48,249 nucleotides of DNA, taken from a virus. Where the stretch lies: UHGV virus genome UHGV-0268419; one strand, written 5' to 3'. This document shows positions 965-48,249 of this stretch, piece by piece; within the stretch, counting starts at the first letter, position 1, and every line of letters starts with the position of its first letter. The notes beneath the pieces are model-generated. The model worked only from the letters and a program-made list of their open reading frames with translations, was not told the DNA's origin and made no database searches. A program made the position numbers and the translations under genes.

Positions 965-1698
965 GGTGTGATCTCCGGTAGTAACTCATGTCGGAGAATA
1001 CCAGTAATGCGCGGCTCAAGGTAGGTGCCATACATCCTATCAATGGTCGATTTGCGGTTCATTAGGTGGTGCATAATCATCCCGTCGCCGGTGTAGATCC
1101 CGCAGTGATTGCTTACGCTGGACGCGATACGGAACACCACCATGTCGCCCGGCTCTGCCTCGGACTTCTTGATAAATCCCGCTGCTGAAAAGTTCTCATC
1201 CGTGAAAAGCTCCTCACCCTTCTCCCACCACGGGTACGGCTTGCGGAAGTCAGGGAGCTGGATGCCTCGCGAACGGTGCCACGCCATCACCAGGCCATAG
1301 CAGTCGGTAGCGCCCAGCACAAAGTCACGACCCAGCAGCCCCTTCGGCTCCTCAAAGAACACCGCCAGCTCATCCTTGTCCGGGGCGTAGATGAACCACG
1401 GTAAGCAAGTTTCCTGCATGAGCTGGCGATCGAGAATTGACGGGTAGGCCAGGCCGTCAGCGCCAGGGTGTGAATGGATGACGGCAACGATATTGCCTGC
1501 GTCCTCAGCCTCAGCGAAGTCCTGCGGAGCAATGCGGAAGCTGTTCATTTTGTCGGCTGCGGAGTTGATGACAGGCCAGTATTCGAGGCCTCCACCTGAA
1601 TCAACCAGAAGCCCGCAGCCTTCTTGCGGCGAACACTCTGTAAGGTGTTGTTTAATATAGTTTAATTGCTGTTCCGGGATGTCATTTACGTCAATCAT
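949..1698 (-). CDS. tail tip protein K-like (MPN/JAB metalloprotease plus NlpC/P60 domains)
   Basis: HSHP JAMM-type motif plus a C-terminal Cys/His NlpC-P60-like region (DCYGLV...H). The ATG at 1698 is preceded by GGAGG; the ORF-track start at 1710 is a GTG. Confidence 0.8.
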   Translation of the reverse strand: MIDVNDIPEQQLNYIKQHLTECSPQEGCGLLVDSGGGLEYWPVINSAADKMNSFRIAPQDFAEAEDAGNIVAVIHSHPGADGLAYPSILDRQLMQETCLPWFIYAPDKDELAVFFEEPKGLLGRDFVLGATDCYGLVMAWHRSRGIQLPDFRKPYPWWEKGEELFTDENFSAAGFIKKSEAEPGDMVVFRIASSVSNHCGIYTGDGMIMHHLMNRKSTIDRMYGTYLEPRITGILRHELLPEITPWETS

Positions 1699-1714: not shown

Positions 1715-1774
1715 CACCACCTGAAATTTTAAATCATTGATTTATAATGCTGAATTTCAGGTGTTAGGTGGTAT
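1715..1774. promoter_or_regulatory. inverted pair of CCACCTGAAATT elements, including the 22-mer ATACCACCTAACACCTGAAATT on the minus strand, 40 nt upstream of K; candidate promoter/operator of the K-I-J-fibre unit
   Basis: CACCACCTGAAATTTT (1715-1730, +) and AATTTCAGGTGTTAGGTGGTAT (1753-1774, the reverse complement of the 22-mer) flank ttgatttataat. The 22-mer is 21/22 identical to 18867-18888. Confidence 0.45.
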
Positions 1775-16535: not shown

Positions 16536-18134
16536 TTACATGGTCAGCTTATCAAGTTCGTTCTTGATGGCTTGCTTTAACGCGCTGCTCATCTCCTCCC
16601 GGACGACTTCGCGAATGGCCTCTTTCATCTCCTCGCCCAGGGTCAGCTTGCTGGCGGGAATGTTTCCGGCGATCACCGCGTTGCCGTGTTTGAGCATGGC
16701 CCAGCTTCCATTGCTGGCAACGACATCCCCTTTAAGCTGGGTGACTTTCAGTGTGCCGCACATGGTGTGCTCCGCTGGCCCGTCGATGCCCTCTGCGGTC
16801 GCCTTCACCTTTGCCTTCACCATCGAAAGAAGTTGTTCAGTGCTGTGAATGCCTGCCGGTGCGTTGGTGTACCCGCGCGCCCAAATAACCCACGCGTCAC
16901 GCTGTGCAACGACATCCTTCACGATCTGCTCCAGTGACTCAATGCGCTCCTTGCGCTTGCGCATCGCTGCGGTGATGGCAGTCCGCTGCGCCTCGCCGCC
17001 CAGTGATGACGGGCTGCAAATGACGTCTGTAGCCCAGTCGTGCCACTCATTGAGCTGACAATACAGGCGATCAATGGTGTCCGCCTGGCGCTTCACGGTG
17101 TCACGGTCAACGGCGGTGCCTGCTTTCATGTCTTCCACGAGCTGCTTATAGCTGGCGATCTCCAGACCAGCGTTAGCCAGGCGTGCTGCGAGTTCGCTGT
17201 TATTCTTGCTCATCGCCTTCGCGTCATTGGTGAGCGCAGTGCAGCGTTGCGTTGCTGCGCCGATGATGTCGCGCTTCTCTGCGATCTCTGTGTGCAGGCG
17301 GTCAATGATTTCTAACAGCTTGCTGATCTCCTTGCGTTTCTCGACCAGTTCGTTAGCCAGCTGGTTAGCCTGCTGCCCGTTCTTGTCGCGCTGGCGCACC
17401 AGGTCGACGACAGTCTGATCGAGGTGCTCGTTGCGCTTTTGCAGGTGGGCGATCTCCTCCGCTGCGTTGCGGTTGAGGTTGATCACGTCGTCCCGCTCCC
17501 GCTCTGCGGCCTCCCTCAGCTGGTCTGATGCGTAGGCTCTGTTGTGCATGGCGTTATAGTCCTTGTTCAGCTGCTTGTTTTTGTTGTGTGCGCTTTCGAT
17601 AGCCGCCGTCATGATTAGGCGAAGATTCCGGTCGTTGGAGTTGCTGGTGGGGTAGGTGGCGAAGTAGGTATCCAGGACGTGCCGGGTGTGCGTGCGCCAG
17701 TCGTTCAGGTTGCCAGCTGCTACAGAAAGATCTTCTGAGCGCTCATCCAGGCGCTGCACGATCGTTTCTATGCCAGCGGCAATGCGCTTACGCTTCTCTT
17801 CCGGCTTCATGTTGACCACCGGCAGGCACTTGAACTTCTGCTCAAGCATTTCGACGCCGAACACCTCCCACTCGCTGAGCGCCTTGATCTTGCTGTCGCG
17901 ATCAGCCTCAAGCGATGCCATAACCTTCATGACGCCCTCAAGGCCCAGCGCCAGGGCAAGCAGGGTGCCGACCTTGATTTTCACGTGCTGCTCAGCACCA
18001 CGGTCTGCGATCTCGACGACGATGGCGCGCGCCAGCTTGAGGTTATTTTCTGCACCTGCCTCGCGGGAAGCGCAAGCGAGAACGCCGCTAACTGGTGCCG
18101 GTGCCGGGGAGGTGAATTTCAGTGATTCAGTCAT
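16536..18134 (-). CDS. 532-aa coiled-coil protein of unknown function, an accessory (moron) gene between terS and terL
   Basis: Long heptad-like helical segments and no Walker motifs. It has its own upstream TTGACA-N17/18-(G)AATAT promoter and hairpin. Confidence 0.6.
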   Translation of the reverse strand: MTESLKFTSPAPAPVSGVLACASREAGAENNLKLARAIVVEIADRGAEQHVKIKVGTLLALALGLEGVMKVMASLEADRDSKIKALSEWEVFGVEMLEQKFKCLPVVNMKPEEKRKRIAAGIETIVQRLDERSEDLSVAAGNLNDWRTHTRHVLDTYFATYPTSNSNDRNLRLIMTAAIESAHNKNKQLNKDYNAMHNRAYASDQLREAAERERDDVINLNRNAAEEIAHLQKRNEHLDQTVVDLVRQRDKNGQQANQLANELVEKRKEISKLLEIIDRLHTEIAEKRDIIGAATQRCTALTNDAKAMSKNNSELAARLANAGLEIASYKQLVEDMKAGTAVDRDTVKRQADTIDRLYCQLNEWHDWATDVICSPSSLGGEAQRTAITAAMRKRKERIESLEQIVKDVVAQRDAWVIWARGYTNAPAGIHSTEQLLSMVKAKVKATAEGIDGPAEHTMCGTLKVTQLKGDVVASNGSWAMLKHGNAVIAGNIPASKLTLGEEMKEAIREVVREEMSSALKQAIKNELDKLTM

Positions 18135-18211: not shown

Positions 18212-18709
18212 TTAGTCGTCACCCCAGTCGACGGCTTCGGACTCCTCGCGCGGCTTCTCATCTTTCGGCCGCTCGCTGACGATCTTCAACCGCACCGGCT
18301 TGTTGGCATCACCGGTCACGACGATCTCAGTGTTGTCGCGATAGCCGAAGTTCGCTTTCAGCATGAAGGTCGCGAAAGTGCTGTTCGTGGCGAAGCCAAT
18401 ATTCAGAATCATCTGCTCGTAAAGCTCGCGCGCCTGCGTGTAAGCGACAGAAAATTCCTTATGCTTCGAACGCCAGTCGTGAAAAGTCGTCGTCGTGATG
18501 CCGATGCTCTCGCAGAAGTTGAGAATAGACGGCATGTTCTTCGGGTTAATGCGGATGTTGCTCTTCCCGGCTGTCGTGTGTGAGTGCTGGATATAGTCAT
18601 CGACGTCGACACGGAAATATTCAAGGAGTTTTTCCGGCATGTCCTCGGTGTAGCTGGTTGGTCTGCCGACTGGGTTCCGAGGTGTCGTTACCTTCACCTT
18701 ATCAGTCAT
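18212..18709 (-). CDS. terS: terminase small subunit (Terminase_2-like)
   Basis: The start was reassigned to MTDKVKV, which has a strong GAGGAAAA RBS. Shows the GRPTSYT HTH, HDWRSKHKEF...AY.QAREL.E...L...FMLKANFGYRD pattern. Confidence 0.8.
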   Translation of the reverse strand: MTDKVKVTTPRNPVGRPTSYTEDMPEKLLEYFRVDVDDYIQHSHTTAGKSNIRINPKNMPSILNFCESIGITTTTFHDWRSKHKEFSVAYTQARELYEQMILNIGFATNSTFATFMLKANFGYRDNTEIVVTGDANKPVRLKIVSERPKDEKPREESEAVDWGDD

Positions 18710-18777
18710 GTTGTTTTCCTCTTTCAAGTGGCTCTGCCCCAGTTTACCCCTATACGGCATGGTGGGGAGAATAAAAA

Positions 18778-18804
18778 CGCGCAGCCACTGCGTAGCGCTT
18801 TTTT
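18778..18804. terminator. bidirectional hairpin terminator upstream of terS
   Basis: aaaaacGCGCAGccaCTGCGtagcgcTTTTTT. Confidence 0.5.
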
Positions 18805-18866
18805 CTTCCCCCATGTGCGTAAGGGTGTACGTGTTTCTGTAATTATATGGGTTTTATATATAATAG

Positions 18867-19197
18867 GGATACCACCTAACACCCGAAATTAACCCTTTCA
18901 TATCAGCTACTTGCAATCGTCAGGTATTGAGCATTTTTAACCGGCCACCTGAGTTAATCATTGCGATTCAATAACTTAGTATTTTCACCGTTCGAAGCGC
19001 GGCAGAACACCTCCGCCTGAGCTGTTGCCGGTACTGTATACGCGTTTTATGTGCTCAATTTGTGTACAGGTGTTCTGTGGATAACTTTTTTCCATCCGCT
19101 TGATTTGGCTGGGAAATATAATATTGATACGGGGGAGTCCCCCTCCGCATTGTTTACATACTGTATAAACACGCAAAAACCGCCATGATTTCAGGTG
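18867..19197. repeat. cluster of CCACCT(N)GAAAT iteron-like repeats, including the 22-mer ATACCACCTAACACCCGAAATT; candidate origin or regulatory region beside the rep gene
   Basis: Copies at 18867-18888 (+), 18949-18962 (+) and 19186-19197 (-), with degenerate CACCT/AGGTG copies at ~19008 and ~19063. A DnaA-box TGTGGATAA is at 19074-19082. A GGGGG-agt-CCCCC hairpin is at 19131-19143. Confidence 0.45.
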
Positions 19198-19211
19198 GAA
19201 AGTAATTGATA

Positions 19212-19240
19212 TTGACACGGTATTACCTGCCGTGAATAAT
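19212..19240 (+). promoter_or_regulatory. sigma70-type promoter for the rep operon
   Basis: TTGACA-17-AATAAT. Its leader GTCCGAACCAAAGCAGGAGG is homologous to the leaders at 34496 and 30844. Confidence 0.6.
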
Positions 19241-19265
19241 GTCCGAACCAAAGCAGGAGGAAACG

Positions 19266-20927
19266 ATGAACGAAGAGAACAAAAGGCCGATGACGCCCGA
19301 CGACTGGAAGGCGTTACTGGGCGATCAGGAGAAACAGCACGAAGCGGCGGACATCCTCAACCAGCCAATGACCCGCGAGGAAGAGGACGAAGCCTATTCG
19401 CAGGAAATGGCCGACATGCAGGCTTACTTCGACCAGGTAGCACGTGCTGAGGTGGAGGAGCGTGAACAGGCGGGAGAAGTAGCGCCACCTGTTCCACCTG
19501 AACCACCTAAGCCGAAGAAGAAAGACGCCGGTCAGCGCCACCTTGAGCTGCAACGCATCGTTCGCGAGGAAAATGAAAAGCAGAATCTCGGGATGGACTT
19601 ATCCGCCCAGCGCGTTGAGGTGGCAAAGCGCCTCGCCGAAGAGGTTGAGCAGGGGTTGGTGGAAGATCCCGCGCTGAAAGATTACGACCCTGGCGAGTAT
19701 GTGCTGAACACCTCGCCGGACTTCTACGACCCGGTGATCGAAGGTCTGCTGAACCGCCGCACCATCAACGAGATCAACGGTGATGCAGGCGCAGGGAAAA
19801 CGACGCTGCTGGTGCAAATGGCGGTCAGCCTCGCCATGGGTCGCCCGCTGTTCAACTGCTTCCGCGTGTGTAACCCCGGCGTCAGCGTGTTCTTCACCGA
19901 AGACCCGGACAGCGTTGAGTTGCAGGTGGCCGCCTGGTCGCTGCGCACCGGCGTCAATCTCCGTGACTGGATCAAGGTGTTCAAGCGGCCGGCCGACCTG
20001 ATGGAGCCAGGAAAGTTGCGCATCCAGAAGAGCCGCGTGTTGCAGTTCGCCAACGGCAGGCCGGTGAATCTGGTCATCTTCGACAGCAAAATGTTCCACC
20101 TGGCGGCGGCCAACAATAACGGCGTGAGCATGGACGAAAACAGCAACACCGACCAGCAGCTGATCACCACTGCCGGGCACCGGTTCGCTGAGTCCCTCAA
20201 CTGCGCAGGGATCTTCATCCCGCACGTAAGCAAGGGAAGCCTGATGTCCGGCCAGTATGATCTTGAGTCTCGTGGCGGATCCGCAGCGAAGGGCGCGGTG
20301 TATAAAACGTTCAGCCTGGTGCGCGAGAAGACACAGACCGGCAAGGGATTGAACGCCCGCCAGAAGGAGACAGGCTACACTGTCCTGAACGTCGGCAAGA
20401 GCCGCCAGGGCGGGTTGAAGGGGCGCTTTAAGCTCAAAGGCTTTCAGGTGCCGGTGTTCGCGAAGGACGTTGAGGCGAAGAAAAAAAGCACGTATGAGAA
20501 GAAACTTGCCCCAGGGCAGGAGGTCGATCGGCCAGACTTCATCTACATCGACGACGCGACGAAGGTCTGGCTGTTCGAAGACCGCGTTTACGATATGGAC
20601 GCCGGAACGGATGAGGAGCACTTTGAACCGGATGAGAAGCGCCAGGCGCACGTGTACACGCCATTGCAGGAGGCCGTGTATTCGCTGCTGAGGGCGGAGC
20701 CGCACGGAACCGCGCCATACAAGGAGATCCTGCACCGTATAAGCTCCACGGTGTTTAAGGCTGACGGGACGCCGTATTCCCGGGAGTCAGTGCGCGACGC
20801 AATTTACAAAATGGCTGAGCTGGGGCACCTGAGCAAAGAGTCTAACCCACACGAAGCCCGTAACCCTTACTACACGATCAAAGATGCCGTTCCCCCGCTG
20901 ATGGGTAGCTGCCGTGATAACCACTGA
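19266..20927 (+). CDS. replication ATPase / helicase (AAA_25 RepA-like RecA-fold) with a C-terminal winged-helix domain
   Basis: Walker A NGDAGAGKTTLL, Walker B-like LVIFDS, and a C-terminal wH. The start was moved to the ATG with the AGGAGGAAACG RBS because the annotated 19239 ATG lies inside the -10. Confidence 0.75.
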   Translation: MNEENKRPMTPDDWKALLGDQEKQHEAADILNQPMTREEEDEAYSQEMADMQAYFDQVARAEVEEREQAGEVAPPVPPEPPKPKKKDAGQRHLELQRIVREENEKQNLGMDLSAQRVEVAKRLAEEVEQGLVEDPALKDYDPGEYVLNTSPDFYDPVIEGLLNRRTINEINGDAGAGKTTLLVQMAVSLAMGRPLFNCFRVCNPGVSVFFTEDPDSVELQVAAWSLRTGVNLRDWIKVFKRPADLMEPGKLRIQKSRVLQFANGRPVNLVIFDSKMFHLAAANNNGVSMDENSNTDQQLITTAGHRFAESLNCAGIFIPHVSKGSLMSGQYDLESRGGSAAKGAVYKTFSLVREKTQTGKGLNARQKETGYTVLNVGKSRQGGLKGRFKLKGFQVPVFAKDVEAKKKSTYEKKLAPGQEVDRPDFIYIDDATKVWLFEDRVYDMDAGTDEEHFEPDEKRQAHVYTPLQEAVYSLLRAEPHGTAPYKEILHRISSTVFKADGTPYSRESVRDAIYKMAELGHLSKESNPHEARNPYYTIKDAVPPLMGSCRDNH

Positions 20928-23732: not shown

Positions 23733-24095
23733 ATGAAACGCATTACCGCCATCGACATCGCCGCAGCCGCCGTGCTGGGCTGCTCATACGTCGGGGACGC
23801 CAGCGCCGTTAGCTGCGCTGTAGGCATCAAGAACATCAATATCCAGCGCGACCTGGGTGTATACGACCGCCTGCCGGATAACGCGCAGATGGATAAGGTC
23901 ATGAAGGACGCCTGCAAGCTGGGTGAGCGCTACCGTAAGGGTAACGTGTCCGAACCGATGTTCGACGTCACCCGCAGCGCAGTGATGAAGGCCATTGCCA
24001 ACAACAAGGCAGATGATGAGGCGAAGGCGCAGGTCATCGCGGTCGTGTCCGACCTGATGGACGTTGGCTACTACGGCGAGGTGAAAGCACGATGA
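23733..24095 (+). CDS. putative lipoprotein (120 aa)
   Basis: N-terminal MKRITAIDIAAAAVLGC resembles a lipobox-like signal. RBS AAGGAG. Confidence 0.45.
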   Translation: MKRITAIDIAAAAVLGCSYVGDASAVSCAVGIKNINIQRDLGVYDRLPDNAQMDKVMKDACKLGERYRKGNVSEPMFDVTRSAVMKAIANNKADDEAKAQVIAVVSDLMDVGYYGEVKAR

Positions 24096-24983: not shown

Positions 24984-25679
24984 ATGAACATGACCACCAA
25001 GAAGAAAAAAACAACTGACGTTACCGACCGCTTCACTGCTGGTGACATCCTGCGCTTCTGGTACGAAGTGGATGAAGGCAACGAGCCTCTGCGCGGCAGC
25101 AACATTCCGGGCCGCAACTCGCTGGTGACGTTCATCGGCTACGGTGAGCTTTCCGGGCAGGAAACCATCATCGCCCGCTGGCATTGCCTGGTGGAGCACG
25201 GTGAATACTCAGTCCCTAACGTGATCGAGTTCCCAACCAACTTCTTCCGTCACCACGGCGTAGCTGATGAGTCGGCGCTAACTCACGACAACATCGCGAC
25301 ACTGAACCGCGATTGTGCTCGCACGGATGGAACCGCGATCTACATGGTCGCCAAAAAGGCGGACGCCCCTGAGAGCGCCTCAGCGCCTCTTGACGCCGCC
25401 CAGGTTCTTGAGAAGGTAAAGGGCCACCTTGAGGAGCGCGGTCGCCGCTACGGCGCGGAGAACGGCAAAGAGCGCCAGTTCGACCGCGTAGCTGACGCAT
25501 TCAATATCGTGCGTTCGTCTGCGAACCGCCAGAACATGCCGCTGACTGGCCTGGACGTGGTGACGCTACAATCCATTTTAAAGATCTGCCGCGCTCAGAC
25601 TGACGACAACACCGACTCGTTCGAAGACCTCGCTGGGTACGCGGCTATCGGCGCTGAGGTCGTGGGAGGGATGAAGTGA
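24984..25679 (+). CDS. hypothetical protein (231 aa)
   Basis: RBS GAGGAA. A possible nucleotide-binding or phosphohydrolase-like C-terminal helical domain is not assignable from sequence alone. Confidence 0.5.
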   Translation: MNMTTKKKKTTDVTDRFTAGDILRFWYEVDEGNEPLRGSNIPGRNSLVTFIGYGELSGQETIIARWHCLVEHGEYSVPNVIEFPTNFFRHHGVADESALTHDNIATLNRDCARTDGTAIYMVAKKADAPESASAPLDAAQVLEKVKGHLEERGRRYGAENGKERQFDRVADAFNIVRSSANRQNMPLTGLDVVTLQSILKICRAQTDDNTDSFEDLAGYAAIGAEVVGGMK

Positions 25680-30808: not shown

Positions 30809-30825
30809 TTTGCTGCTCCTTCTGT

Positions 30826-30867
30826 TGGGTGTTCGGGCATATTACTTGGGCACCATATACCTGTCAA
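30826..30867 (-). promoter_or_regulatory. consensus sigma70 promoter with a conserved leader (copy 2 of 3)
   Basis: Minus-strand TTGACA-17-TAATAT followed by GCCCGAACACCCAACAGAAGGAG. Confidence 0.6.
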
Positions 30868-34471: not shown

Positions 34472-34520
34472 TTGACAGGGCATATTATGCGGAAGTAATA
34501 TGCCCGAACACCCCACAGGA
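34472..34520 (+). promoter_or_regulatory. consensus promoter with a conserved leader (copy 3 of 3) and a 10-bp inverted repeat
   Basis: TTGACA-18-TAATATGCCCGAACACCCCACAGGAGG, with the palindrome GGGCATATTA-N8-TAATATGCCC. Confidence 0.6.
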
Positions 34521-34527
34521 GGTCATC

Positions 34528-37199: not shown

Positions 37200-37403
37200 A
37201 TGAACATCACACTGATTTTGAAAGAACACCGCGAGCGCGCTGGATTTTCCCAGCGTGGTCTGGCGAAAGCAGCAGGCATTGCGCAGTGCCGCGTATGCCG
37301 TTATGACAATGGCCGTGAGTTCCCGACCATTGAAACCATGATCCGCCTTGCGAAGCCCCTGGGCATCGAATGGCATGAACTCGTTAAAGTGGAGGGTGAA
37401 TAA
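37200..37403 (+). CDS. XRE/Cro-like HTH transcriptional regulator (67 aa)
   Basis: HTH SQRGLAKAAGIAQCRVCRYDNG. Confidence 0.6.
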   Translation: MNITLILKEHRERAGFSQRGLAKAAGIAQCRVCRYDNGREFPTIETMIRLAKPLGIEWHELVKVEGE

Positions 37404-38810: not shown

Positions 38811-41800
38811 TTATTGTCCAAAAGAACCGTTGTTGCTTCGGAATGCAGTCACAACAATATTGCTTACTGTGACCTCACTCTGCTGCGGCCCAAAACTTGC
38901 GCCAGTCAGCGAGATGCCGATTCGGTCGTTACTTGCTGGAATGTTAACGGTGAACGACTGCGGAACATCCACAAGGCCACGCGCTTTATCCCGCATATCA
39001 ACAACGACGCGTCTCGTACTCTGCACTCCGTTAATGTTGAATGTCAGAACCACATAGAAGTCACGGCTTTGGTCGCCTACCCCGCCAGAGTATGAATTGC
39101 ATCGCACAGTGCAGTTCAGCGTGATGGTCATCGGATACCCACGGTTCTGATACCATGCGTTCATAGTGCCAGAACCTTCACCGCCCTTGACAGTAAATCC
39201 GTTGAACGAAGCAGAAGTAGCAATATCGCCGATAAAAGACTCAGCTTGCACCGTTCCCTTGAAAATACCGCTGTTAGCCTCGACACGACCACGAACGATA
39301 ACGTTATTGAACTGCGAGCTGCCATCTTTACCGATGCGCCAGCCCTGAGAGCCATCGACAAAGTTGTTCGACTTGATTTCGTTTCCGATCTTCGCGTTGG
39401 TGATCGAGCCATCGCGGATCAGCGCTTCCTGCATGTACGCCACGCCGTTCTGCACAACGAACGGGAACGTCTTGTTACTGCCGCCAGCGTACACCGCGAA
39501 GGTGTCAGCCTGAACCAGGAACTGAGAAGAGCCACTCGCGTCGATGCCCAGCTGAATACCAGCAATGCGCGGGTTTCCGCCGCCGTTGTCAGTCTGAACT
39601 TTGACGCCCCACTGCGCCGACAGCTTGCCGTTGATATCCGCAACAGCCGTTGAAGTCTGCTGAACGGTGGAACTCATACCATCCACTGACGCCTTGATTG
39701 TGCCGATCTGCTGCGCCGTTGAAGACTCAAGATCCACCATTGCCTGGCTCGTCTGCGTGATGGCCGCCTGGTTGTCGCCGATCTGCGCACGCAGTTGCTG
39801 GAAGCCGTTCGCCATCGCCAGACCGTTAGCCGCTGTCGTCTCATTCAGGGCATTGACCGACGCTTCGGCTGTCCCCACCCGGCTCGTCAGCCCGGTAATG
39901 GCGGTCGTGTTCGCCGTAATGTCCTTGCCCTGCTGCGTCACCGTGGAGTTCAGCGAGGTGATGGCGGCCGCGTTCGCCTGGATCCCAGCGCCCCGACGGG
40001 TCACTACCGGGTTATACAGGCTGACGCGGGTCGTGGCGGCGTGGCTCCCCGCCTGGATGTAGGCGGTCGTACAGCCTGCCGGAACCGTGATGCCCGTCAG
40101 GGTGAAGCGATATTTCTCCCCGGCGGTCATGGTGCGGTTGGTGGCATACGCGGTCTGGTTGCTGACACTCGGGCCGTCGAAACGTAGCCCGACTGTTATC
40201 TCGCCTGCGATGTTGACCATTACCGACACCGCCAGATCCAGCGTCTCACCCGCCGTGACCGGGAATTTCCCCGACGTCGGGTTATAGCTCACCGTGGAGT
40301 ACACCGCCGGATAGCCGTCGATGGTCTCCGTCCCGGTCTTCGCCCAGCCCTGGCCATCGCCCAGCATTCCAGGGTTAGGCACCAGGTTGTCGCCGTAGGT
40401 GATGCTGTTCTGTAGACTGGTGATGCTCTGACCTTGCGAAGTGATGCTTCCCTCGGCAGACGTCACTCGGTTGGTTAGGGCGGTCAGCGCGGTCGCATTC
40501 GCCTTTTTGGCCACTTCCGCATTCGTGGCCGCCAGGTCGCCCTTCGTCGTGGACAGGTCGCTATTCAGCTTGGTAATCGCCTGACCCTGAGAGGTCAGTG
40601 TATTGCCCTGCTGGGTGACAGTCGATTGCAGGCTGGTGATCGCGTTGGAGTTCGCGATAGTACCGGCATTTCTGCGGGTAACTTTAATGTTATAGATCGT
40701 GAGGGTAATGGCGTTTCTGCTATAAGGTTGGAGATAGCCAGTTGTCGCGCCATCCGGGACAGTGATGGTTCCAGTTACGGATTTCTTCTCGCCAGCTGCA
40801 TAGTTTAACGGCTCCACGTAGACCGAGTTGTTCGTCATGCTCGGGCCATCGAAGCGAATACCCCATGCCATGCCGTTGATTGCGGCACCAGCCAGACAAA
40901 GAAGACTAAAGTCTAGAATGTCGCCAGGTGTTACGGAAAACTTAGGTGAAGTTGGAGACCATGCTGCCGTGTCGATCACAGCCGGATAACCGTCAACAGT
41001 TGTTGCATGACCACCCCAACCCTGAGCGTCATTCAGCATTGCGGAGTTCGGAACAATGTTGTCGCCCACCGTTAAAGTATTTTCTAACGACGTTACGCGA
41101 CTGCCCTGGCTCGCGATTTGGCCTTCTGTGGTGGTAACGCGCGTTTGCAGCGCGGTGACTGCGCTGGCGTCAGCCTTCTGACTCAGCGTGCCATTGATGG
41201 TGCTCACGTCACCGTTCAGCTTGGTGATCGCGTCTGCCTGAGATGTGATCTGCCCTTCTGCGGCGCTCACACGGCTGGTCAGGCTATTGATCGCGCTTGA
41301 GTTAGCGTCTGCTGTGGTCTGTGCTGCGTGCGCGTCGGTTACGTCGGTGATCACCAGATCGTCGATATAGATGCGATATCCAGGGCCTCCGGACGTGCCG
41401 CGAGTGGAGATCCACAGGCGACCTCGTGTTTTCTTTGCGCCGTCTAAGCCGAGCTTACCGGAGAACTTGACCCACTGACCGCGGCCGCCACCAGCAGCAA
41501 GCCCTGCCTCTGTAATGACGAATGCGCTAGGCCATGCGTTCTGGTTGGCTGTGTTGCGAACCATTAAGCCCACAACACAGTTCCACCCGTTCGGCGGCGT
41601 CTCATCTTCCGGCATCATCGCCCAGCATTCGAAGCGGTAAACCGCAGACTCGCGAATAGCTGTTTCATTGCCGAAAGTCTTGTCAGAGTTGCCGGATTCA
41701 CCGTTGGCGCGGCGACACATAAGCGACTTCTGACCACTGAATGAGAAGTCAGTAGTGACCAGTCCATTAGATCCGCCGATGGCTTGCTGGTTGTCATACG

Positions 41801-44800
41801 ACTCGAATGATCCATCTACCCACGGGTTGCTGTTGCTGTACTGAACAGTTTTAAGCGAGTTGTTCAGCTGGGTGATCGCGCTGCCCTGCGACGTGATGTC
41901 GTTACCCTGCTGGGTTACTTTCGTGTTCAGCGAGGTGATCGCGTCAGCGTTCGCCTGAATCTTGGTGTCGTTGGTGATGTCGACAACGTAGACGTCGTCG
42001 AAATACATCGCCCCAGCACTCAGTGCGGTAGTCAGCTGAAACAGCGCGTTGGTGGTCTTCGTAGCCGTCCAGTCCATGAAGACGTGTTGCCATTCAGACG
42101 TAAACGGGCCGTAATTCGTGCCAGCAAGAAGATTTCCTGATGCGTCAGCGATACGGAATTTCGTGTTGTTCGTATCGTTGATGACAGTACCGGCGTCCTG
42201 TTTGGTAAACACGCCGAAGCGGTAGCGGCGGCCCTGCGTGATCTCCACGGCCTGACTGATTCCAGCTCTTCCGCCTGCCGCCATCTTGACAATTTTGGTG
42301 CCAGAATGCGGCTGTGTTGCCGTGATGATGGTGGCAAGGCTGCTCCAGCCGGTGAAGTTAACCGGGCCGCGCTCAAACGATGAGTTAGCCAGCAGGTTTC
42401 CGGGGATCTTGCCCTGCGCGTCGATTGAGGCGTCAGTTGCAGACAGGCTATTGCTCAGCTGGGTGATCGACTGGCCCTGTGAATCGATCTTGCCTTCGGC
42501 AGTCGATACGCGGGTGGTAAGCGCGTTCAGCGCCGAAGCGTCAGCCTTATTGTTCACGATGCCGGTCAGCGTGCTCAGATCGCTGGTCAGTTTGGTGATG
42601 GCCTGACCCTGAGACGTGATCGACCCTTCCGCTGATGTGACACGGGTGGTCAGCTGGCTGATCGCTGTGGCGTTGGCGTCTGCCTTGCCCTCAGCAGTCG
42701 CCGCTGCGGTGACGTCGCGCACCTGCCAGTCGGTCGCATACCATACTGTCCCGAAGTTAGGGCCGTCCTGATTGATTTGCAGGAATGGACGGAAGTAACC
42801 CTTCGCACCCTGCGCCGCGTTTACTTTCCAGCGCCACGTGGTTCGCGTCCACTGCGCGCCGGTAGCCGCTGAGATTTGGCCTCCGTTCGCCAGTGGCGAC
42901 CCGATGCTGCCAGAAACCAGTGTCGACGTCCCGATGTAGTGCTGGAACGGTGCAGTGCCGGTGCCACACGCAGCCAGTACAGACAGCTCAAACACCTGAC
43001 CTTCGCGGCAAGGGATGTTATTCATTGCCGGGACGTGATCGCGGTACTGGCATTTAATCGCCCACGGGTAAGGGCATCCAGCCGGAACGCCTTCTGACGT
43101 TGTGGAGACAACGTTCATGCCCATTTGCGGATAGGCCGGGTCTACCGTCGGGTTCGGGATGAGGTTCGCCGCCTGAGTCAGTACGCCCTTGATCGATGAG
43201 TTGATCGAGGTGATGGACTCAGCCTGTGAGTCAATCTTCCCTTCGGCTGCACTGACCCTGGTCGTCAGGTTGTTGATCGCCGTTGAGTTAGCGGAGATCT
43301 TCCCGTTCGCTGTCGACAGGTCGCTGGTGAGCTGGGTAATTGCATTGCCATGAGCCGTGATCTTCCCTTCGGCGGTGGTGACGCGGGTGGTCAGCGACTG
43401 CAATGCGCTCGCGTCAGCTTTGTTGTTCAGCGCGGTGTTGATGTCCCGCACCGAGTTGTTCAGAGTGACGATAGCGGCACTGTTCGCGTCAACCTTCCCG
43501 GAGGTCTGCTCAACCTGAGAGGAGAGCACCTGGGAGGCTGATGCAGCGGCCAGCTGACCGGCACCACTGAACAGTTGATCGACGTTGTCGGACAGCTTGA
43601 GGCCAAAGTTGATATAGAACTGACCGGTGTACTGCGCAACAACGAATTCAAGCGTGTTCCAGCCTTTTTTGAGATCCATGCTGTAGGTGCTGGTGCTGGC
43701 AGAGAAGGAAGCCGCTTCCGTTCCATTGATGTACAGCCGTCCGGTGTCGTCAATGATGCGGGAACCGGGCGAGATAGCAATGGTCTTATCAGCCGCAACA
43801 TACACCAGCGCCTTCACATACGCGATTTTGTAGTCGCCGTAAGGCAGAAAATCCAGCTTTGCAGCGTCAGCCATCTCGTACACGGCCAGCGGCGGCACGC
43901 CTGCGAGATCTGTTAACTTCGGCACGTAGCCGGTATTAACCTTAATATCGAAGATCTTTGTCAGCCAGTACTTCGCTTTACCGTTCTGCGCGGTGTTCTG
44001 CAAATCGGTGATGGCCTGACCCTGCGAAGAGATGGCGTTCCCCTGCTGGGTGACAGTGGTCGCCAGCTGCTGCAATGCGCTCGCTTCGGCCTTGGTCGCC
44101 ATCTGACCCTGCAAAGTGCTCACGTCGCCTTTGAGCTGGGTGATCGCCTGGCTGTTGGTGCTGATGGTGCCTTCCGCCGCAGTAACGCGGGTGGTCAGGG
44201 CGTTAAGCGCCGTAGCGCTCGCGTTGGCGGTGTTGATGCTGCCCTGGACTTCGTCCGGGTTCGGCCCCCAGTCGGTTCCCCGGTTGCCCTCTTCCAGCTG
44301 GATTTTGTACAGCACGCAGCCGGTCGTCCGCTCCTTATCCTCACAGATAATGCGCAGCGTGTTCGGATTTTTGAACAGTACCGCCCCGGCCGCCACTGTA
44401 ACCGTCCCGCGATAGCGGAAATACTGGCCATCCTCCACGATGCTTCCGTCGCTCATGTAGAAGCGCTTGCTCCAGCTGTCACCGGTCGCGCTCGCGGCCC
44501 CAAGCACGGCGCTGGTGAACGGATCTTTCATGGTGTAATCGTTGGACTTCTTAAACCAGACTGACAGCGTGAAATAGGTGGTCGCACTGATGCTTTTCGC
44601 CTTCCACGTGTCCGGCACCTGGAAGTCATACGAGGTGAACGACGTCGCCGAAGACCGCATGGTGAGCGGGTTCAGTGTGCGGTCTGACCCCAGCAGGATG
44701 TTCTCTGCCCCGATCTTAATTTCCGTGACTGTGTTCTTTAGCGAGGTAATCGCCTGGCCCTGAGAGGTCAGCGTATTGCCCTGCTGGGTGACAGTCGATT

Positions 44801-47800
44801 GCAGGCTGGTGATCGCGTTGGAGTTCGCCGTGATCTTCCCGTTCGCGTCGGTCAGGCCGCTTTGAAGCTGGGTAAGTGCCTGCGCCTGAGACTGGTTCTC
44901 GCTGGTCAGCGTGTCGAGACGCTTGGTCACGGAGGCCTTGTTCGCGTTGTAGTCAGTGCGCAGGGTGTTGACGTCGCTGGCGATCGCCTGCTCTGCGGTG
45001 ACGCGGGTCTGGCGCTCGTTGAAGATGATGCCTGTCACCAGCTTGGACGGGTCGGTTCCCTCATAGTTCCCGCGAAGCTGTACGGCCAGCGTGTTACGCG
45101 CTGCGGCTTCGGCAGAGTCCGCAGAGGTCATGGCGGTGCGAAGATCCTGAATCTGCGCCTGTGAAGCGCCTGGGGTCGGTCGTCCTACTGCCAGCCAGTC
45201 GACGGCGTAGTAGTTATTGGCGTCCTGATTGTTTGAGAAGTCAAAGCGCAGGCGGCGCACGGTGCCGGATGTCGCCCACAGAAGATCTGGGATCGACAGG
45301 ACAGTGATCCCGGTGGCCGGGTCAAAGTCAGGTGCCGGAATGGCAATTGAGCGGCCACTTGTCCAGCCAGTCTCATCCACACCAATCCAATACAGCTTAC
45401 CAGCCCATGACGGGTTCCCGACTCGCTTCATGCGCAGGCGCATGTACTTATAGCTGCGCGCGTCGATTGCCAGCGGGTTAGGTGAGCGCATGGTGGATGC
45501 TGCGCCAGCAGGGTAAATCCAGCCATCTTGGTCGACGGTGAGCAGATTGGTGTTGGCGTCGTCAGAAGCCCACCCTTCCGGGCCGTTGTCGAAATACCAG
45601 ATAGCGAGGCTGTCGAACTGCTCGCCAGTACCAGCGGAAATGGATGCCATCTGCTGCGCCAGGCTGTCGAAGCCGTCCTGCATCGTGGTATTGGTGGTGC
45701 TGATCTGCGCTTCGACTTCGTTTTTTGTCGCCAGCAGGTTAGCCGCAGCCTGAGCTGCCACTTCTGCGTCATCCGTCTCAGCCTTCGCGATAGCGTCGGC
45801 CACGTCCTGAGCTGCCTTGTTGGCGTTCGCGATGTCGCCAGCCTTGCGGTCAAGGATCTCCTGAGCGATTGCACTGGCGTTTGCCGCCCCCGCGTTAGCG
45901 GTGGTGGTGATGGCCTGCGCGTTCTTCTGGATCTCGGCCAGCTGGTTGTTCAGCTGCTGCTGCTGCTGCTGGTTGGTTGTCACTGCTCCGTCAGCAGTAA
46001 CCTGCGCGGCCTGCGCGGCGTCTTTCGCTGCCTGTGCGCTGTCGCTTACGTCTTTGATGCCGCTGGTAAGTTCGCCGTAGGTGTCGGAGCCTTTGATCGC
46101 GTCGTCGATGTTCTGGTAATAGTCGTCCATGTTGTCGGACGTCATCGCCATGACCGGGGCGCTCCACTCGCCAGCATCGCTATATGACGACACAAAGCGG
46201 GCGCGCACCTGCACGCGTTCGGAAAATTTCAGGCCGGACTGTGTGAACGTCCCGGTCGGGTAGGTCACGACGCTGAGATCGATCCACCCACCAACCGGAG
46301 CACCATTGCCGTCAATGCGCTGGAACTGTAGCTCTGTCGACTTCATGTCGATCAGATCATCCGTGCCAGTCACCCAACGCCAGGTAATACCGTTAACGAT
46401 GCCTACGCCGTTCAGGCCAGCTACTGCCGGGATGCTGCCGCGCTTGCCGTCAACGAACACCTGATTCGACTCGACCCACTGAGACGACCCGCCGTCACGG
46501 GATACGGAACGAACGCGGAACTGATAGGTGCCGGTCAGAACGTTGGTCAGGTCTACGGACGTGCTCGACTGGCTGGCAAGGTTAGTCCACCCCTGTGACC
46601 ACTGGCCGTTTGACTGAGAGGTTCGGCGCACCTGAATGTCGTAGCTGACGGCCTGACCTACGGTGAACCATGAACAGTTTACGTTAGCTGAGCGAATCCC
46701 CTGGTTAACGATACTGTAGCCTTCGGCCACCACGTTAGCGGGTGCCTGTACCTGACCGGTCGGGATCAGCGATGTCGGGCGGTCTTCAATTCGCGCGCCG
46801 GTGTCAACCTGCAAATACTTCGAGTGGCTGTATTGCAGACCGGTAACGGTGAAATTATTGTCCTGCTCGTTGTAGGTGATCTTGGTGATGCGGATTAGTT
46901 CCGGTGCCAGTACCTTAGTATCCAGCAGGAACACTTCACCGCTCTGAATATCAAGGTTAGCGCCGTCGACGGTGAAGGACATCCGGTCAGCCGCGATTGC
47001 ATTGATCACGCGGTTGTAGGTTCCATCCGATCCAGCTTGACGAACGATCACTCTGTCGCCGATTGCCACGTGGTCGGAGATCATACGGTCGGAGGTAATG
47101 GTGGTGCCGGATGCGCCAGCAACACGCCCGCCGAACTGACCGCCCTGCACGTAGCGGTTAGCGATGCCGACGACGTCGCCGATCAGGTACTTGATGCCGC
47201 TCAGGCCGACGCGGTAGCTGATCTGCATGTCGTTGGTATTCGACAGCAGCGCCCACAGGCCGCGACGTTGCGCTTCGTATTCGTCCGTGCAGCCGATGCC
47301 GGACACTTCCAGCGGCTCAACGCCATAGCGCTCCACGAGGTCTTTGATCTGCGCCACAGTGGTCTGCGTCTTATAGTGCGCCTTCGGGTCGTCAAAAGTG
47401 ACCATCGCGATCCCGCGACGGTTAGCCATGCTGCCGTAGGAATATTCGAACGTCCCGTTCACGACGTCGTCGTTTGTCACAACATGGCGGACTTCTGCCG
47501 GTGCATCCTGCGCGAACTGCAATTGCATATTGCTGTAGCTGACCATTCCGTTAAAGATCGACGCCAGGTCACGGATGACGATCCACGCATGCTCGCGTTT
47601 CTGGATATACACGTTACAGGTGTAACGGCGGTTCTGCGTGCCGTCGGCGTTCGTCACCAGCTCATCGCAGCGCTGTGCGATGCTGTACATCGTCCATTTG
47701 TTCAGGAATGAGGACGGGATACGGCGGCCAATACCGAAGCGCTTGTGCAGAATGATGTCGTAGACGATCCACGCCGGGTTATCCGTCCACGCCTGTTTAA

Positions 47801-48249
47801 ATGTCCCGTTCCACGACCCGCTGTAGGTGTGGTTAACAGGGTCATAGTTGGACGGAACCAGCACCAGACGGCCGCCCATCTTGATGCTGATTGTCGGGAT
47901 GTTCTGGAACGATTTGGCGTCGAAGCTGACGAACAGTAGGGACGTCCACGGGTAACGAACGCGGGCGTCGACGATCTCGGTGACAGCCACGATCCCGGAG
48001 TTGAGCACGGTGGTATCAGACTTGCTGTCGTCAGTTAGGCGGGTAACGCGGATTTGCCAGCCAGCGCTGCTCTTCGGCAGGTCGATGCGGTGATCGCGTT
48101 CATAGTTGTCTTTCTGCTTGCCGTCGACAGCACCATTGAAGGCCACGGTGTAGACGCTGTCGCCGACTTTGCGGTATTCAATCCGGTACTCAATGCGTCC
48201 GCCTACGCGATCCCCGTCCTTCTGCTGGATGACCAGCCGGAAATTCATT
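38811..48249 (-). CDS. central tail fibre / host specificity protein J-like, C-terminal 3146 codons. The full gene is ~3267 aa and wraps to 1..365. It contains ≥7 coiled-coil/globular repeat modules.
   Basis: The core resembles lambda J (LVPSNYDP..YSGSWNGTFKQAW...NPAW). The C-terminal ~200 aa resemble the lambda J receptor-binding region. The intervening ~2000 aa consist of repeated ITSLQSTVTQQGNTLTSQGQAITSL-type helical segments alternating with beta-rich domains. Confidence 0.85.
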   Translation of the reverse strand, partial: MNFRLVIQQKDGDRVGGRIEYRIEYRKVGDSVYTVAFNGAVDGKQKDNYERDHRIDLPKSSAGWQIRVTRLTDDSKSDTTVLNSGIVAVTEIVDARVRYPWTSLLFVSFDAKSFQNIPTISIKMGGRLVLVPSNYDPVNHTYSGSWNGTFKQAWTDNPAWIVYDIILHKRFGIGRRIPSSFLNKWTMYSIAQRCDELVTNADGTQNRRYTCNVYIQKREHAWIVIRDLASIFNGMVSYSNMQLQFAQDAPAEVRHVVTNDDVVNGTFEYSYGSMANRRGIAMVTFDDPKAHYKTQTTVAQIKDLVERYGVEPLEVSGIGCTDEYEAQRRGLWALLSNTNDMQISYRVGLSGIKYLIGDVVGIANRYVQGGQFGGRVAGASGTTITSDRMISDHVAIGDRVIVRQAGSDGTYNRVINAIAADRMSFTVDGANLDIQSGEVFLLDTKVLAPELIRITKITYNEQDNNFTVTGLQYSHSKYLQVDTGARIEDRPTSLIPTGQVQAPANVVAEGYSIVNQGIRSANVNCSWFTVGQAVSYDIQVRRTSQSNGQWSQGWTNLASQSSTSVDLTNVLTGTYQFRVRSVSRDGGSSQWVESNQVFVDGKRGSIPAVAGLNGVGIVNGITWRWVTGTDDLIDMKSTELQFQRIDGNGAPVGGWIDLSVVTYPTGTFTQSGLKFSERVQVRARFVSSYSDAGEWSAPVMAMTSDNMDDYYQNIDDAIKGSDTYGELTSGIKDVSDSAQAAKDAAQAAQVTADGAVTTNQQQQQQLNNQLAEIQKNAQAITTTANAGAANASAIAQEILDRKAGDIANANKAAQDVADAIAKAETDDAEVAAQAAANLLATKNEVEAQISTTNTTMQDGFDSLAQQMASISAGTGEQFDSLAIWYFDNGPEGWASDDANTNLLTVDQDGWIYPAGAASTMRSPNPLAIDARSYKYMRLRMKRVGNPSWAGKLYWIGVDETGWTSGRSIAIPAPDFDPATGITVLSIPDLLWATSGTVRRLRFDFSNNQDANNYYAVDWLAVGRPTPGASQAQIQDLRTAMTSADSAEAAARNTLAVQLRGNYEGTDPSKLVTGIIFNERQTRVTAEQAIASDVNTLRTDYNANKASVTKRLDTLTSENQSQAQALTQLQSGLTDANGKITANSNAITSLQSTVTQQGNTLTSQGQAITSLKNTVTEIKIGAENILLGSDRTLNPLTMRSSATSFTSYDFQVPDTWKAKSISATTYFTLSVWFKKSNDYTMKDPFTSAVLGAASATGDSWSKRFYMSDGSIVEDGQYFRYRGTVTVAAGAVLFKNPNTLRIICEDKERTTGCVLYKIQLEEGNRGTDWGPNPDEVQGSINTANASATALNALTTRVTAAEGTISTNSQAITQLKGDVSTLQGQMATKAEASALQQLATTVTQQGNAISSQGQAITDLQNTAQNGKAKYWLTKIFDIKVNTGYVPKLTDLAGVPPLAVYEMADAAKLDFLPYGDYKIAYVKALVYVAADKTIAISPGSRIIDDTGRLYINGTEAASFSASTSTYSMDLKKGWNTLEFVVAQYTGQFYINFGLKLSDNVDQLFSGAGQLAAASASQVLSSQVEQTSGKVDANSAAIVTLNNSVRDINTALNNKADASALQSLTTRVTTAEGKITAHGNAITQLTSDLSTANGKISANSTAINNLTTRVSAAEGKIDSQAESITSINSSIKGVLTQAANLIPNPTVDPAYPQMGMNVVSTTSEGVPAGCPYPWAIKCQYRDHVPAMNNIPCREGQVFELSVLAACGTGTAPFQHYIGTSTLVSGSIGSPLANGGQISAATGAQWTRTTWRWKVNAAQGAKGYFRPFLQINQDGPNFGTVWYATDWQVRDVTAAATAEGKADANATAISQLTTRVTSAEGSITSQGQAITKLTSDLSTLTGIVNNKADASALNALTTRVSTAEGKIDSQGQSITQLSNSLSATDASIDAQGKIPGNLLANSSFERGPVNFTGWSSLATIITATQPHSGTKIVKMAAGGRAGISQAVEITQGRRYRFGVFTKQDAGTVINDTNNTKFRIADASGNLLAGTNYGPFTSEWQHVFMDWTATKTTNALFQLTTALSAGAMYFDDVYVVDITNDTKIQANADAITSLNTKVTQQGNDITSQGSAITQLNNSLKTVQYSNSNPWVDGSFESYDNQQAIGGSNGLVTTDFSFSGQKSLMCRRANGESGNSDKTFGNETAIRESAVYRFECWAMMPEDETPPNGWNCVVGLMVRNTANQNAWPSAFVITEAGLAAGGGRGQWVKFSGKLGLDGAKKTRGRLWISTRGTSGGPGYRIYIDDLVITDVTDAHAAQTTADANSSAINSLTSRVSAAEGQITSQADAITKLNGDVSTINGTLSQKADASAVTALQTRVTTTEGQIASQGSRVTSLENTLTVGDNIVPNSAMLNDAQGWGGHATTVDGYPAVIDTAAWSPTSPKFSVTPGDILDFSLLCLAGAAINGMAWGIRFDGPSMTNNSVYVEPLNYAAGEKKSVTGTITVPDGATTGYLQPYSRNAITLTIYNIKVTRRNAGTIANSNAITSLQSTVTQQGNTLTSQGQAITKLNSDLSTTKGDLAATNAEVAKKANATALTALTNRVTSAEGSITSQGQSITSLQNSITYGDNLVPNPGMLGDGQGWAKTGTETIDGYPAVYSTVSYNPTSGKFPVTAGETLDLAVSVMVNIAGEITVGLRFDGPSVSNQTAYATNRTMTAGEKYRFTLTGITVPAGCTTAYIQAGSHAATTRVSLYNPVVTRRGAGIQANAAAITSLNSTVTQQGKDITANTTAITGLTSRVGTAEASVNALNETTAANGLAMANGFQQLRAQIGDNQAAITQTSQAMVDLESSTAQQIGTIKASVDGMSSTVQQTSTAVADINGKLSAQWGVKVQTDNGGGNPRIAGIQLGIDASGSSQFLVQADTFAVYAGGSNKTFPFVVQNGVAYMQEALIRDGSITNAKIGNEIKSNNFVDGSQGWRIGKDGSSQFNNVIVRGRVEANSGIFKGTVQAESFIGDIATSASFNGFTVKGGEGSGTMNAWYQNRGYPMTITLNCTVRCNSYSGGVGDQSRDFYVVLTFNINGVQSTRRVVVDMRDKARGLVDVPQSFTVNIPASNDRIGISLTGASFGPQQSEVTVSNIVVTAFRSNNGSFGQ
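40572..40655 (-). repeat. intragenic DNA repeat copy 1 (82/84 nt identical to 44745-44828)
   Basis: ggtaatcgcctgaccctgagaggtcagtgtattgccctgctgggtgacagtcgattgcaggctggtgatcgcgttggagttcgc. Confidence 0.8.
44745..44828 (-). repeat. intragenic DNA repeat copy 2
   Basis: Near-identical to 40572-40655; encodes the same coiled-coil peptide. Confidence 0.8.

Follow-up and report, generated by a model that had tools for sequence, protein, structure and literature searches.

In iteron plasmids such as pSC101 and R6K gamma, the origin combines repeated sites for the Rep protein with an AT-rich region, a site for integration host factor (IHF) and a DnaA box. The Rep proteins of these plasmids are two-winged-helix initiators without a helicase domain that recruit the host DnaB, and their iterons are direct repeats of about 19–22 bp. 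The alpha protein of phage P4 is a superfamily-3 helicase fused to a primase and has a C-terminal origin-binding domain; it recognises one short repeat both at ori and at crr, which lies 4.5 kb from ori and consists of 120-bp direct repeats. In cosB of phage lambda (R3-I1-R2), protein-binding sites flank an IHF bend beside the small terminase gene. The Rep protein of Staphylococcus aureus pathogenicity islands (SaPIs) joins a hexameric-helicase-type ATPase and a C-terminal winged helix, which reads short iterons, in one polypeptide (PMC9371898). The SaPI iterons flank an AT-rich centre in opposite orientations, and their specificity differs between elements (PMC9371898). Here we describe a repeat system in the virus genome UHGV-0268419, a stretch of 48,249 nucleotides (nt) that was analysed as a whole and is called the window below. 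It comprises two copies of a module built from 8-bp units, one between the small terminase gene terS and the putative initiator gene rep, the other 17 kb away between the structural genes L and K. On balance, we favour the view that the repeats are iterons for Rep and form origin-like modules in two copies.

The window is a complete, circularly permuted 48.2-kb genome of a Klebsiella siphophage of the unclassified vB_Kp3/HSE3/ATCEA85 family. Its closest relatives are phiKp_24, phiKp_7-1 and vB_Kp3, each 98% identical to it; further off stand HBM00, KPAJ1/Op1_ER4, the HSE3/phiKp_7-2 group, the ATCEA85 group and K70PH128C1, all unclassified Caudoviricetes. On the minus strand, the structural genes follow one another from terS (start at 18709) through L, K and I to the gene for a tail protein of 3145 amino acids (aa) and a fibre gene, and rep heads an early operon on the plus strand. 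The two gaps concerned measure 556 nt (terS-rep) and ~290 nt (L-K).

The 22-mer ATACCACCTAACACCYGAAATT occurs exactly twice in the window, at 18869–18890 (+) and 1753–1774 (−), and had no match in 100 shuffles searched with up to three mismatches. It is a tandem of two 8-bp units, CCACCTAA and CACCYGAA. A preliminary description of the sequence had reported this duplication and an inverted partner at the K locus, and both are borne out, the partner being CCACCTGAAAT at 1717–1727 (+), which recurs exactly at 19188–19198 (−). The genome-wide search that it recommended, run as CCACCT-N0-8-GAAAT, returned four matches, every one at the two loci (0.22 expected), and CCACCTGARWT returned three (1717, 18945 and 19188; 0.12 expected). 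The cluster of short sequences beside the putative initiator gene thus exceeds chance. Similarity between the loci reaches 37 nt and extends, more loosely, through the AT-rich tract back to a terminator-like hairpin present at both. The array had been placed at 18867–19197; the repeats are there, but this extent is too short, as the array reaches down to 18721 (Table 1). The K-side copy does lie between a terminator after L (hairpin at ~1826–1855) and the ribosome-binding site (RBS) of K (RBS/ATG 1698–1696), as had been stated. Elsewhere in the genome, we rejected the 8-mer as a marker of scattered functional sites. CACCTGAA occurs 12 times in window-type genomes versus 2–3 times in other lineages, and TCCGCGAA 13 times in phiKp_7-2 versus 3–5, but most of these copies are ordinary coding sequence, since the homologous positions in Op1/KPAJ1 show no switch to CCCCTGAA. 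The exception is the extra copy inside gene K (1592–1602), which becomes CCCCCTGAATC in Op1/KPAJ1 through a synonymous GGT-to-GGG change.

Alignment of the motif in related phages, also called for in the preliminary description, shows that the letters differ, the architecture is kept and each phage carries its own motif at both loci. Seven lineages have seven motif variants within one shared module architecture (Table 1), the sixth and seventh coming from the metagenomic lineages L018/L019 and L021, which were found via their Rep homologs. In the window, HSE3, ATCEA85, K70PH128C1 and KPAJ1/Op1, the K-locus motif also fills the rep-side module, the rep-promoter site (13–25 nt upstream of the −35 across these phages) and the site at the terS RBS. 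This last position is likewise filled by the lineage's own motif in K70 (TTTACGCGAAATG) and L018 (CTACACGCGAAAGG). The 10-mer of each K locus has 2–5 copies in its own terS-rep region (at most one mismatch; 0.02–0.06 in shuffles) and, in a cross-table, is almost never found in the terS-rep regions of other lineages. All six genomic copies of CTTCCGA[AG] in ATCEA85 fall at the two loci. Such concerted change at physically separate sites is to be expected if a trans-acting factor reads the sequence, and the sharing of lineage-specific motifs strongly supports the earlier suggestion of a phage-factor binding site common to the two loci. A K-locus module with the lineage-specific motif is present in every complete genome examined. 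The stretch at 1778–1900, after L, is non-coding and holds the terminator and AT-rich DNA; in the HSE3 group its identity is 93%, compared with 82–88% for the flanking L and K proteins. Small open reading frames in this interval are called inconsistently by some annotators.

In all lineages and at both loci the module has the same order: a terminator-like hairpin; ~40 nt of AT-rich DNA ending in (A/T)TATATATAA; 3–5 G/C-rich bases; two 8-bp units in tandem, with GAAAT(T) at their end; a ~24-nt AT-rich spacer; and one or two units in the opposite orientation. A and T make up ~79% of the spacer, and no lineage lacks the TATATATAA box. Opposed repeats around an AT-rich centre are seen in the K-side module of the window, and in Op1, ATCEA85 and L021 the rep-side module has a pair of units on either side of the centre. 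The degenerate right arm of the rep-side module in the window corresponds to a clear inverted copy in Op1/KPAJ1 and ATCEA85. An exact match to the IHF consensus WATCAANNNNTTR occurs only once in the whole window, in the K spacer at 1730–1742 (0.68 expected genome-wide). Exact matches are present in 11 of 15 related terS-rep regions (~0.02 expected per region), and the rest, including the window, have a match with one mismatch. The K spacer of HBM00 has lost the letters TATAAA/TATAAT and keeps a perfect IHF consensus, which suggests that the spacer is conserved as a bend site and not as a promoter. The IHF-consensus spacer and the opposed-repeat geometry, the most conserved features of the module, were absent from the preliminary description.

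That description had also noted a perfect DnaA box in the terS-rep region; the box is there and is the sole exact copy in the window. A DnaA box in the middle of the region is found in three independent lineage types, namely the window type, L021 and K70. Both the IHF and the DnaA sites are consensus matches, those for IHF being strongly enriched and conserved in position and those for DnaA occurring in some lineages; the DnaA box would be at most accessory. In Op1, KPAJ1 and L012, the −10 of the rep promoter is TGTGAATAA, an exact match to the DnaA box TTATNCACA that overlaps the promoter. The same region of the window (19230–19240) reads CGTGAATAA, with one mismatch to the DnaA box.

The AAA_25 ATPase with a winged-helix domain that had been proposed beside the array is supported by an AAA_25 match and by a confident AlphaFold prediction. 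The predicted C-terminal winged helix (aa ~466–540, nt ~20661–20885) has the order helix–strand–helix–helix–hairpin with predicted local distance difference test (pLDDT) scores of 85–93. In Foldseek searches it resembles MarR, SarA and RosR domains in DNA complexes, with template modelling (TM) scores of ~0.6 and root mean square deviations of 1.5–2.3 Å. The best structural matches of the ATPase core are RSF1010 RepA, RecA/RAD51, KaiC and DnaB, and a PDB sequence search with Rep gave only a marginal match to RSF1010 RepA. Comparing Rep of the window with that of phiKp_7-2 reveals an ATPase core that is ~100% identical and a stretch of ~70 aa at the C-terminal end that is 40–47% identical.

To compare candidate readers, we used a pair of motifs that differ by one base, CACCT (window, MUC-5, Mingus, HBM00, KPJD2 and K49) and CCCCT (KPAJ1 and Op1). 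Rep of KPAJ1/Op1 has six private substitutions clustered in the C-terminal domain. They fall in the first wing strand (S-to-N) and where helices 2 and 3 begin, the change in helix 3 being SRESV to SRDSV (E-to-D). HBM00, KPJD2 and K49, which share the window motif, have a window-type domain with two substitutions only, in loops. The Rep winged-helix domain and the motif co-vary across the seven lineages, a correlation to be expected if the specificity of the domain matches the repeats. As it is the C-terminal winged helix of the protein (~70–80 residues) that varies together with the motif, the reader is most plausibly Rep itself. Skarpretter-like phages (L020, 5560–5760; L022, 4480–4640) encode a Rep of 32% identity with the same C-terminal domain. 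Directly downstream of rep they carry an AT-rich TATATA tract and then four or five (C/T)ACTCGC direct repeats, an iteron-like array whose position and geometry differ from those of the window modules.

The other candidates did not follow the motif. The Cro-like helix-turn-helix (HTH) protein (HTH67, 37200–37403) was excluded because it is identical in HBM00 (CACCT) and Op1 (CCCCT). The HTH of TerS is also identical in these two phages, whose motifs differ, and has many differences between the window and HBM00, which share the motif. A NinH-like 70-aa protein is an unlikely reader, with only L-to-I and I-to-V changes, and g105 is missing from phiKp_7-2. Scans with Pfam, PHROGs and NCBIfam found no other DNA-binding domain in the remaining early proteins.

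We read the repeats as Rep iterons on the combined strength of the helicase joined to a winged helix, the opposed repeats, the lineage-specific pairs and the site at the rep promoter. In the module that we propose, the tandem units would face the opposed units across the spacer and IHF would bend this AT-rich DNA. Rep assemblies on either side would be brought together, leading to opening of the AT-rich DNA, and the helicase could then load itself in a scheme like that of SaPI Rep, with host-factor sites as in iteron plasmids. The AT box on the rep side is a candidate unwinding element or, alternatively, a weak promoter (CTGTAA-16-TATAAT, 9/12). The single site before the rep promoter (19188–19198) is a candidate autoregulation site through which Rep would feed back on its own gene, and the single sites next to the terS and K RBSs could couple the two late operons to replication or to Rep occupancy. 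The K-locus module may serve as a further origin or, like crr of P4, as a cis partner; it may alternatively be a control site for the tail-tip operon, a role compatible with that of an origin. A more specific two-site system, in which the rep-side module fires replication and the K module, together with the sites at the terS and K RBSs, couples packaging and tail-tip expression to Rep loading or fork passage, seems to us rather unlikely.

Several observations weigh against Rep-dependent origins. It is unusual for a second origin to lie between tail genes. The two modules follow directly on a terminator and have the same polarity towards the downstream gene, as would a regulated promoter, and they may instead serve late transcription, since the terS-L and K-fibre operons have no recognisable sigma-70 promoter. 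GC skew, which the preliminary description had suggested as a check, and AT skew follow gene orientation only; they are uninformative and give no origin signal. The DnaA box is mutated by a point change in MUC-5, which is 97% identical, and is absent from several variants of the region. Lineage-diagnostic substitutions also occur in several proteins of unknown function (g120, 23733–24095; g231, 24984–25679; orf532), which are formally candidate readers too, although none has a recognisable DNA-binding domain. Moreover, the concordance screen is correlative and covers few independent lineages. Rep and the rep-side module are linked, and part of the concordance could be due to hitch-hiking, against which the K locus, 17 kb away, argues.

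A regulated promoter or operator is a conceivable but doubtful alternative. A DNA-binding protein, Rep or another, would act on the repeats and the IHF bend to switch rep, terS-L and K-I-J-fibre, and the TATATATAA box, in an equally tentative reading, would be the −10 region of an activator-dependent promoter. The orientation of both modules, downstream of a terminator and pointing at the next gene, fits such a role, as do the motif copies that abut the terS RBS, the K RBS and the rep-promoter −35, and the weak CTGTAA-16-TATAAT match in the rep-side AT box. The K-I-J-fibre genes need their own start, because the terminator after L severs them from upstream transcription, and no sigma-70 match of at least 9/12 leads into terS or K, whereas the early genes have six near-consensus TTGACA promoters. 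In a distant phage with a K homolog, L and K abut with no module between them, so the L-K insert would be an added control element. The promoter candidates themselves are poor. The weak match in the rep-side AT box has no counterpart elsewhere at the modules, and the spacer candidates are unconserved: TATAAA (towards K) and CTGAAA-16-TATAAT (away from K) are both lost in HBM00, which keeps the IHF consensus. By eye, no GG-N10-GC match to a sigma-54 promoter was found at terS or K. Furthermore, a strong promoter 300 nt downstream already serves rep, the dedicated HTH regulator (37200–37403) does not track the motif, and opposed repeats, an AT-rich centre, a DnaA box and an adjoining helicase-initiator gene form a classical origin layout. 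The promoter and origin readings are mutually compatible.

It is very improbable that the repeats form a pac- or cosB-like site at which the small terminase binds on either side of an IHF bend. TerS is a P22 gp3-type protein (PF16677), the rep-side array lies directly upstream of its gene with one copy abutting its RBS, and sites flanking an IHF site resemble lambda cosB. Nevertheless, the TerS HTH is discordant with the motif in both comparisons given above, packaging does not need a full second module between L and K, and a further copy is found at the rep promoter. We give just as little credence to a hairpin formed by the K leader as RNA (or as single-strand DNA) and acting as a stabiliser, an attenuator or a small RNA, in which changes in the arms would be compensatory. 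The K-locus arms can pair as an 11-bp stem (−20.1 kcal/mol, z = −2.3), a change in one arm between lineages goes with a change in the other, and the opposite-strand CTGAAA-16-TATAAT and the terminator could bound an RNA of ~100 nt. Such a hairpin is missing from the rep-side module of the window (z = −1.05), the second K-locus copy in K70PH128C1 is direct and not inverted, the lineage motif is also found on its own, in single copies, at the rep promoter and terS RBS, the opposite-strand TATAAT is gone in HBM00, and covariance-model and tRNA scans gave no Rfam match and no tRNA or tmRNA. A functionless duplication, in which a segment of ~40–100 nt was copied between the loci by chance or as a selfish element and homogenised by recombination, is scarcely credible: the loci do share at least 37 nt with similar AT-rich flanks and the phage encodes Erf/RecE-type recombination genes, but both loci, in spite of their changing letters, keep their architecture down to 57% K-protein and 58–66% Rep identity, the non-coding DNA on the K side is better conserved in the HSE3 group than the genes beside it, and the IHF consensus sites are retained.

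Table 1. Features of the two modules in the window, and lineage-specific motifs and K-locus sequences (read towards K).
Feature	Sequence	Position	Strand	Remark
Degenerate copy	CCACTTGAAAG	18721–18731	−	directly 5′ of terS RBS
Bidirectional terminator-like hairpin	A-run/GCGCAG-CCA-CTGCG/T-run	18779–18793		between terS and module
AT box, rep side	TAATTATATGGGTTTTATATATAAT + AGGG	18840–18868	+	TATATATAA core common to seven lineages, both loci
Left arm, rep side	CCACCTAA + CACCCGAA, then ATT	18869–18890	+	the 22-mer
IHF-like site	TATCAGCTACTTG	18901–18913	+	one mismatch to WATCAANNNNTTR
Degenerate right arm, rep side	TCGTCAGGTATTG (TCAGGTAT)	18917–18929	−	core TCAGGT
Motif copy	CCACCTGAGTT	18945–18955	+	exact-pattern match
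Second IHF-like site	ATTCAATAACTTA	18966–18978		after motif copy 18945–18955
Degenerate copy	AACACCTCCGCCTGAG	19006–19021	+	in terS-rep region
Degenerate copy	AACACCTGT	19066–19074	−	abuts DnaA box
Perfect DnaA box	TTATCCACA (TGTGGATAA)	19076–19084	−	sole exact copy in window
Motif copy	CCACCTGAAAT	19188–19198	−	13 nt 5′ of rep-promoter −35
rep promoter, strong sigma-70 type	TTGACA-17-AATAAT (11/12)	19212–19240	+	
Rep, 553 aa		19266–20927	+	N-terminal helical region, AAA_25 RecA-fold ATPase aa 149–324, C-terminal winged helix (predicted)
Terminator-like hairpin with T-run	CTCCC/GGGAG	1826–1855	−	after gene L
AT box, K side	TATTTATGGTAATAAATATATATACCA	1775–1800	−	
Left arm, K side	ATACCACCTAACACCTGAAATT	1753–1774	−	22-mer copy
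IHF consensus	AATCAATGATTTA	1730–1742	−	within 24-nt AT-rich spacer
Right arm, K side	ATTTCAGGTGG (K-sense)	1717–1727	+	ends ~19 nt before K start codon
Extra copy	CCACCTGAATC	1592–1602	+	inside gene K
Motif, window	CACCTGAAAT			
Motif, KPAJ1/Op1	CCCCTGAAAT			
Motif, HSE3/phiKp_7-2	TCCGCGAAAT			
Motif, ATCEA85	CTTCCGAAAT			
Motif, K70PH128C1	TACGCGAAAT			
Motif, L018/L019	CTACAYGCGAAAT			
Motif, L021	CCCTCGAA			
K locus, window	ATACCACCTAACACCTGAAATT – cagcattatAAATCAATGATTTAa – AATTTCAGGTGG			
K locus, HSE3/HJK1	ATTGTCCCTGTTCCGCGAAATT – …TTCAATGGCTTA… – AATTCGCGGAA			
K locus, ATCEA85	…CCGTCTGACTTCCGAAATT – …ATTCAATGACTTA… – ACTCGGAAGG			
K locus, K70PH128C1	TTTTACGCGAAATT – AAATCAACATGTTA – …TTTTACGCGAAATT			
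K locus, KPAJ1/Op1	…CCCCTGAAATT – AAATCAATGGCTTA – GTTCAGGGGA			

Further observations concern other parts of the genome. Three strong early promoters, at 30818–30867 (−), 34472–34522 (+) and 19212–19260 (+), have the form TTGACA-17/18-TAATAT or AATAAT and share a near-identical downstream leader, TAATATGCCCGAACACCC…AGGAGG, which is the longest inverted repeat of the window. This leader is a conserved initial transcribed region and may be a regulatory target. Between terS and terL lies a 532-aa gene, orf532 (16536–18134, −), an odd occupant of a packaging module. It is hypervariable, with 65% identity in HBM00 and 37% in phiKp_7-2, is replaced in ATCEA85 and has no Pfam or PHROG match. The gene for the 3145-aa tail protein (38811–48248, −), especially at 39886–44900, contains at least six diverged copies each of ~92–94-nt repeats (families D1–D3). 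CTGAAG/CTTCAG has no copies in the window and phiKp_7-2 and 44 in ATCEA85; its absence resembles avoidance of an Eco57I/AcuI-type restriction site that is confined to some of the lineages. For EKq1, a 48.2-kb relative, PhageTerm gave direct terminal repeats of 8,798 bp (PMC10793312). This length is implausible and may represent a high-coverage interval between two preferred ends; the repeat cannot be related to either module, because the EKq1 record has been re-oriented to begin at terS.

The publications that we found on this phage family are isolation and genome reports of candidates for Klebsiella therapy, and none deals with replication or gene control. In a family for which we thus found no prior molecular work, the comparison of genomes suggests a lineage-variable pair of iteron and winged helix, arranged around an IHF bend and present twice per genome. 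If this is correct, the origin or origins would be located and the initiator identified for these phages, and a RecA-fold helicase would use the design of a winged-helix tail and opposed iterons so far described for the superfamily-3 helicases of SaPIs. It would also yield seven naturally occurring pairs of matched motif and domain. In one of these, a single base is matched by six residues, which makes it an unusually clean case in which to follow the evolution of winged-helix specificity and the ways in which related co-infecting phages avoid cross-initiation. Should the two-site system hold, the seven pairs would be mutually orthogonal origin-initiator specificities that evolved via few residues in helix 3 and the wing. 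The module between the tail genes is the unusual part, and through it a possible coupling of replication to late expression becomes open to direct test.

Set beside the known systems, the architecture resembles that of SaPI and iteron-plasmid origins. As in lambda cosB, repeat sites flank an IHF-type site near terS; the motif, however, fails to co-vary with terS here, and tail genes flank a full second module. In P4, too, one short repeat stands at two distant places in the genome, ori and crr, for which we know of no IHF-centred opposed geometry. Iteron plasmids offer the repeats, the AT-rich DNA, and counterparts of the IHF and DnaA consensus matches, as well as a site at the rep promoter that suggests autoregulation. 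They differ in that the phage Rep has a helicase-type ATPase, the phage repeats are 8 bp long and a second module is present in the same genome; to our knowledge, iteron plasmids have no second module elsewhere on the replicon. In common with SaPIs, the window has a Rep whose single chain carries both a helicase-type ATPase and a predicted C-terminal winged helix, repeats that oppose one another across AT-rich DNA, and lineage-specific pairs of repeat and domain. However, SaPI Rep is a superfamily-3 AAA+ protein, whereas the window Rep has a RecA-fold AAA_25 domain, and the SaPI ori lies immediately downstream of rep, whereas the window modules lie upstream of rep and 17 kb away. The window module is further distinguished by its IHF sites, sometimes its DnaA sites, and by repeats of 8 bp compared with 5–6 bp in SaPIs.

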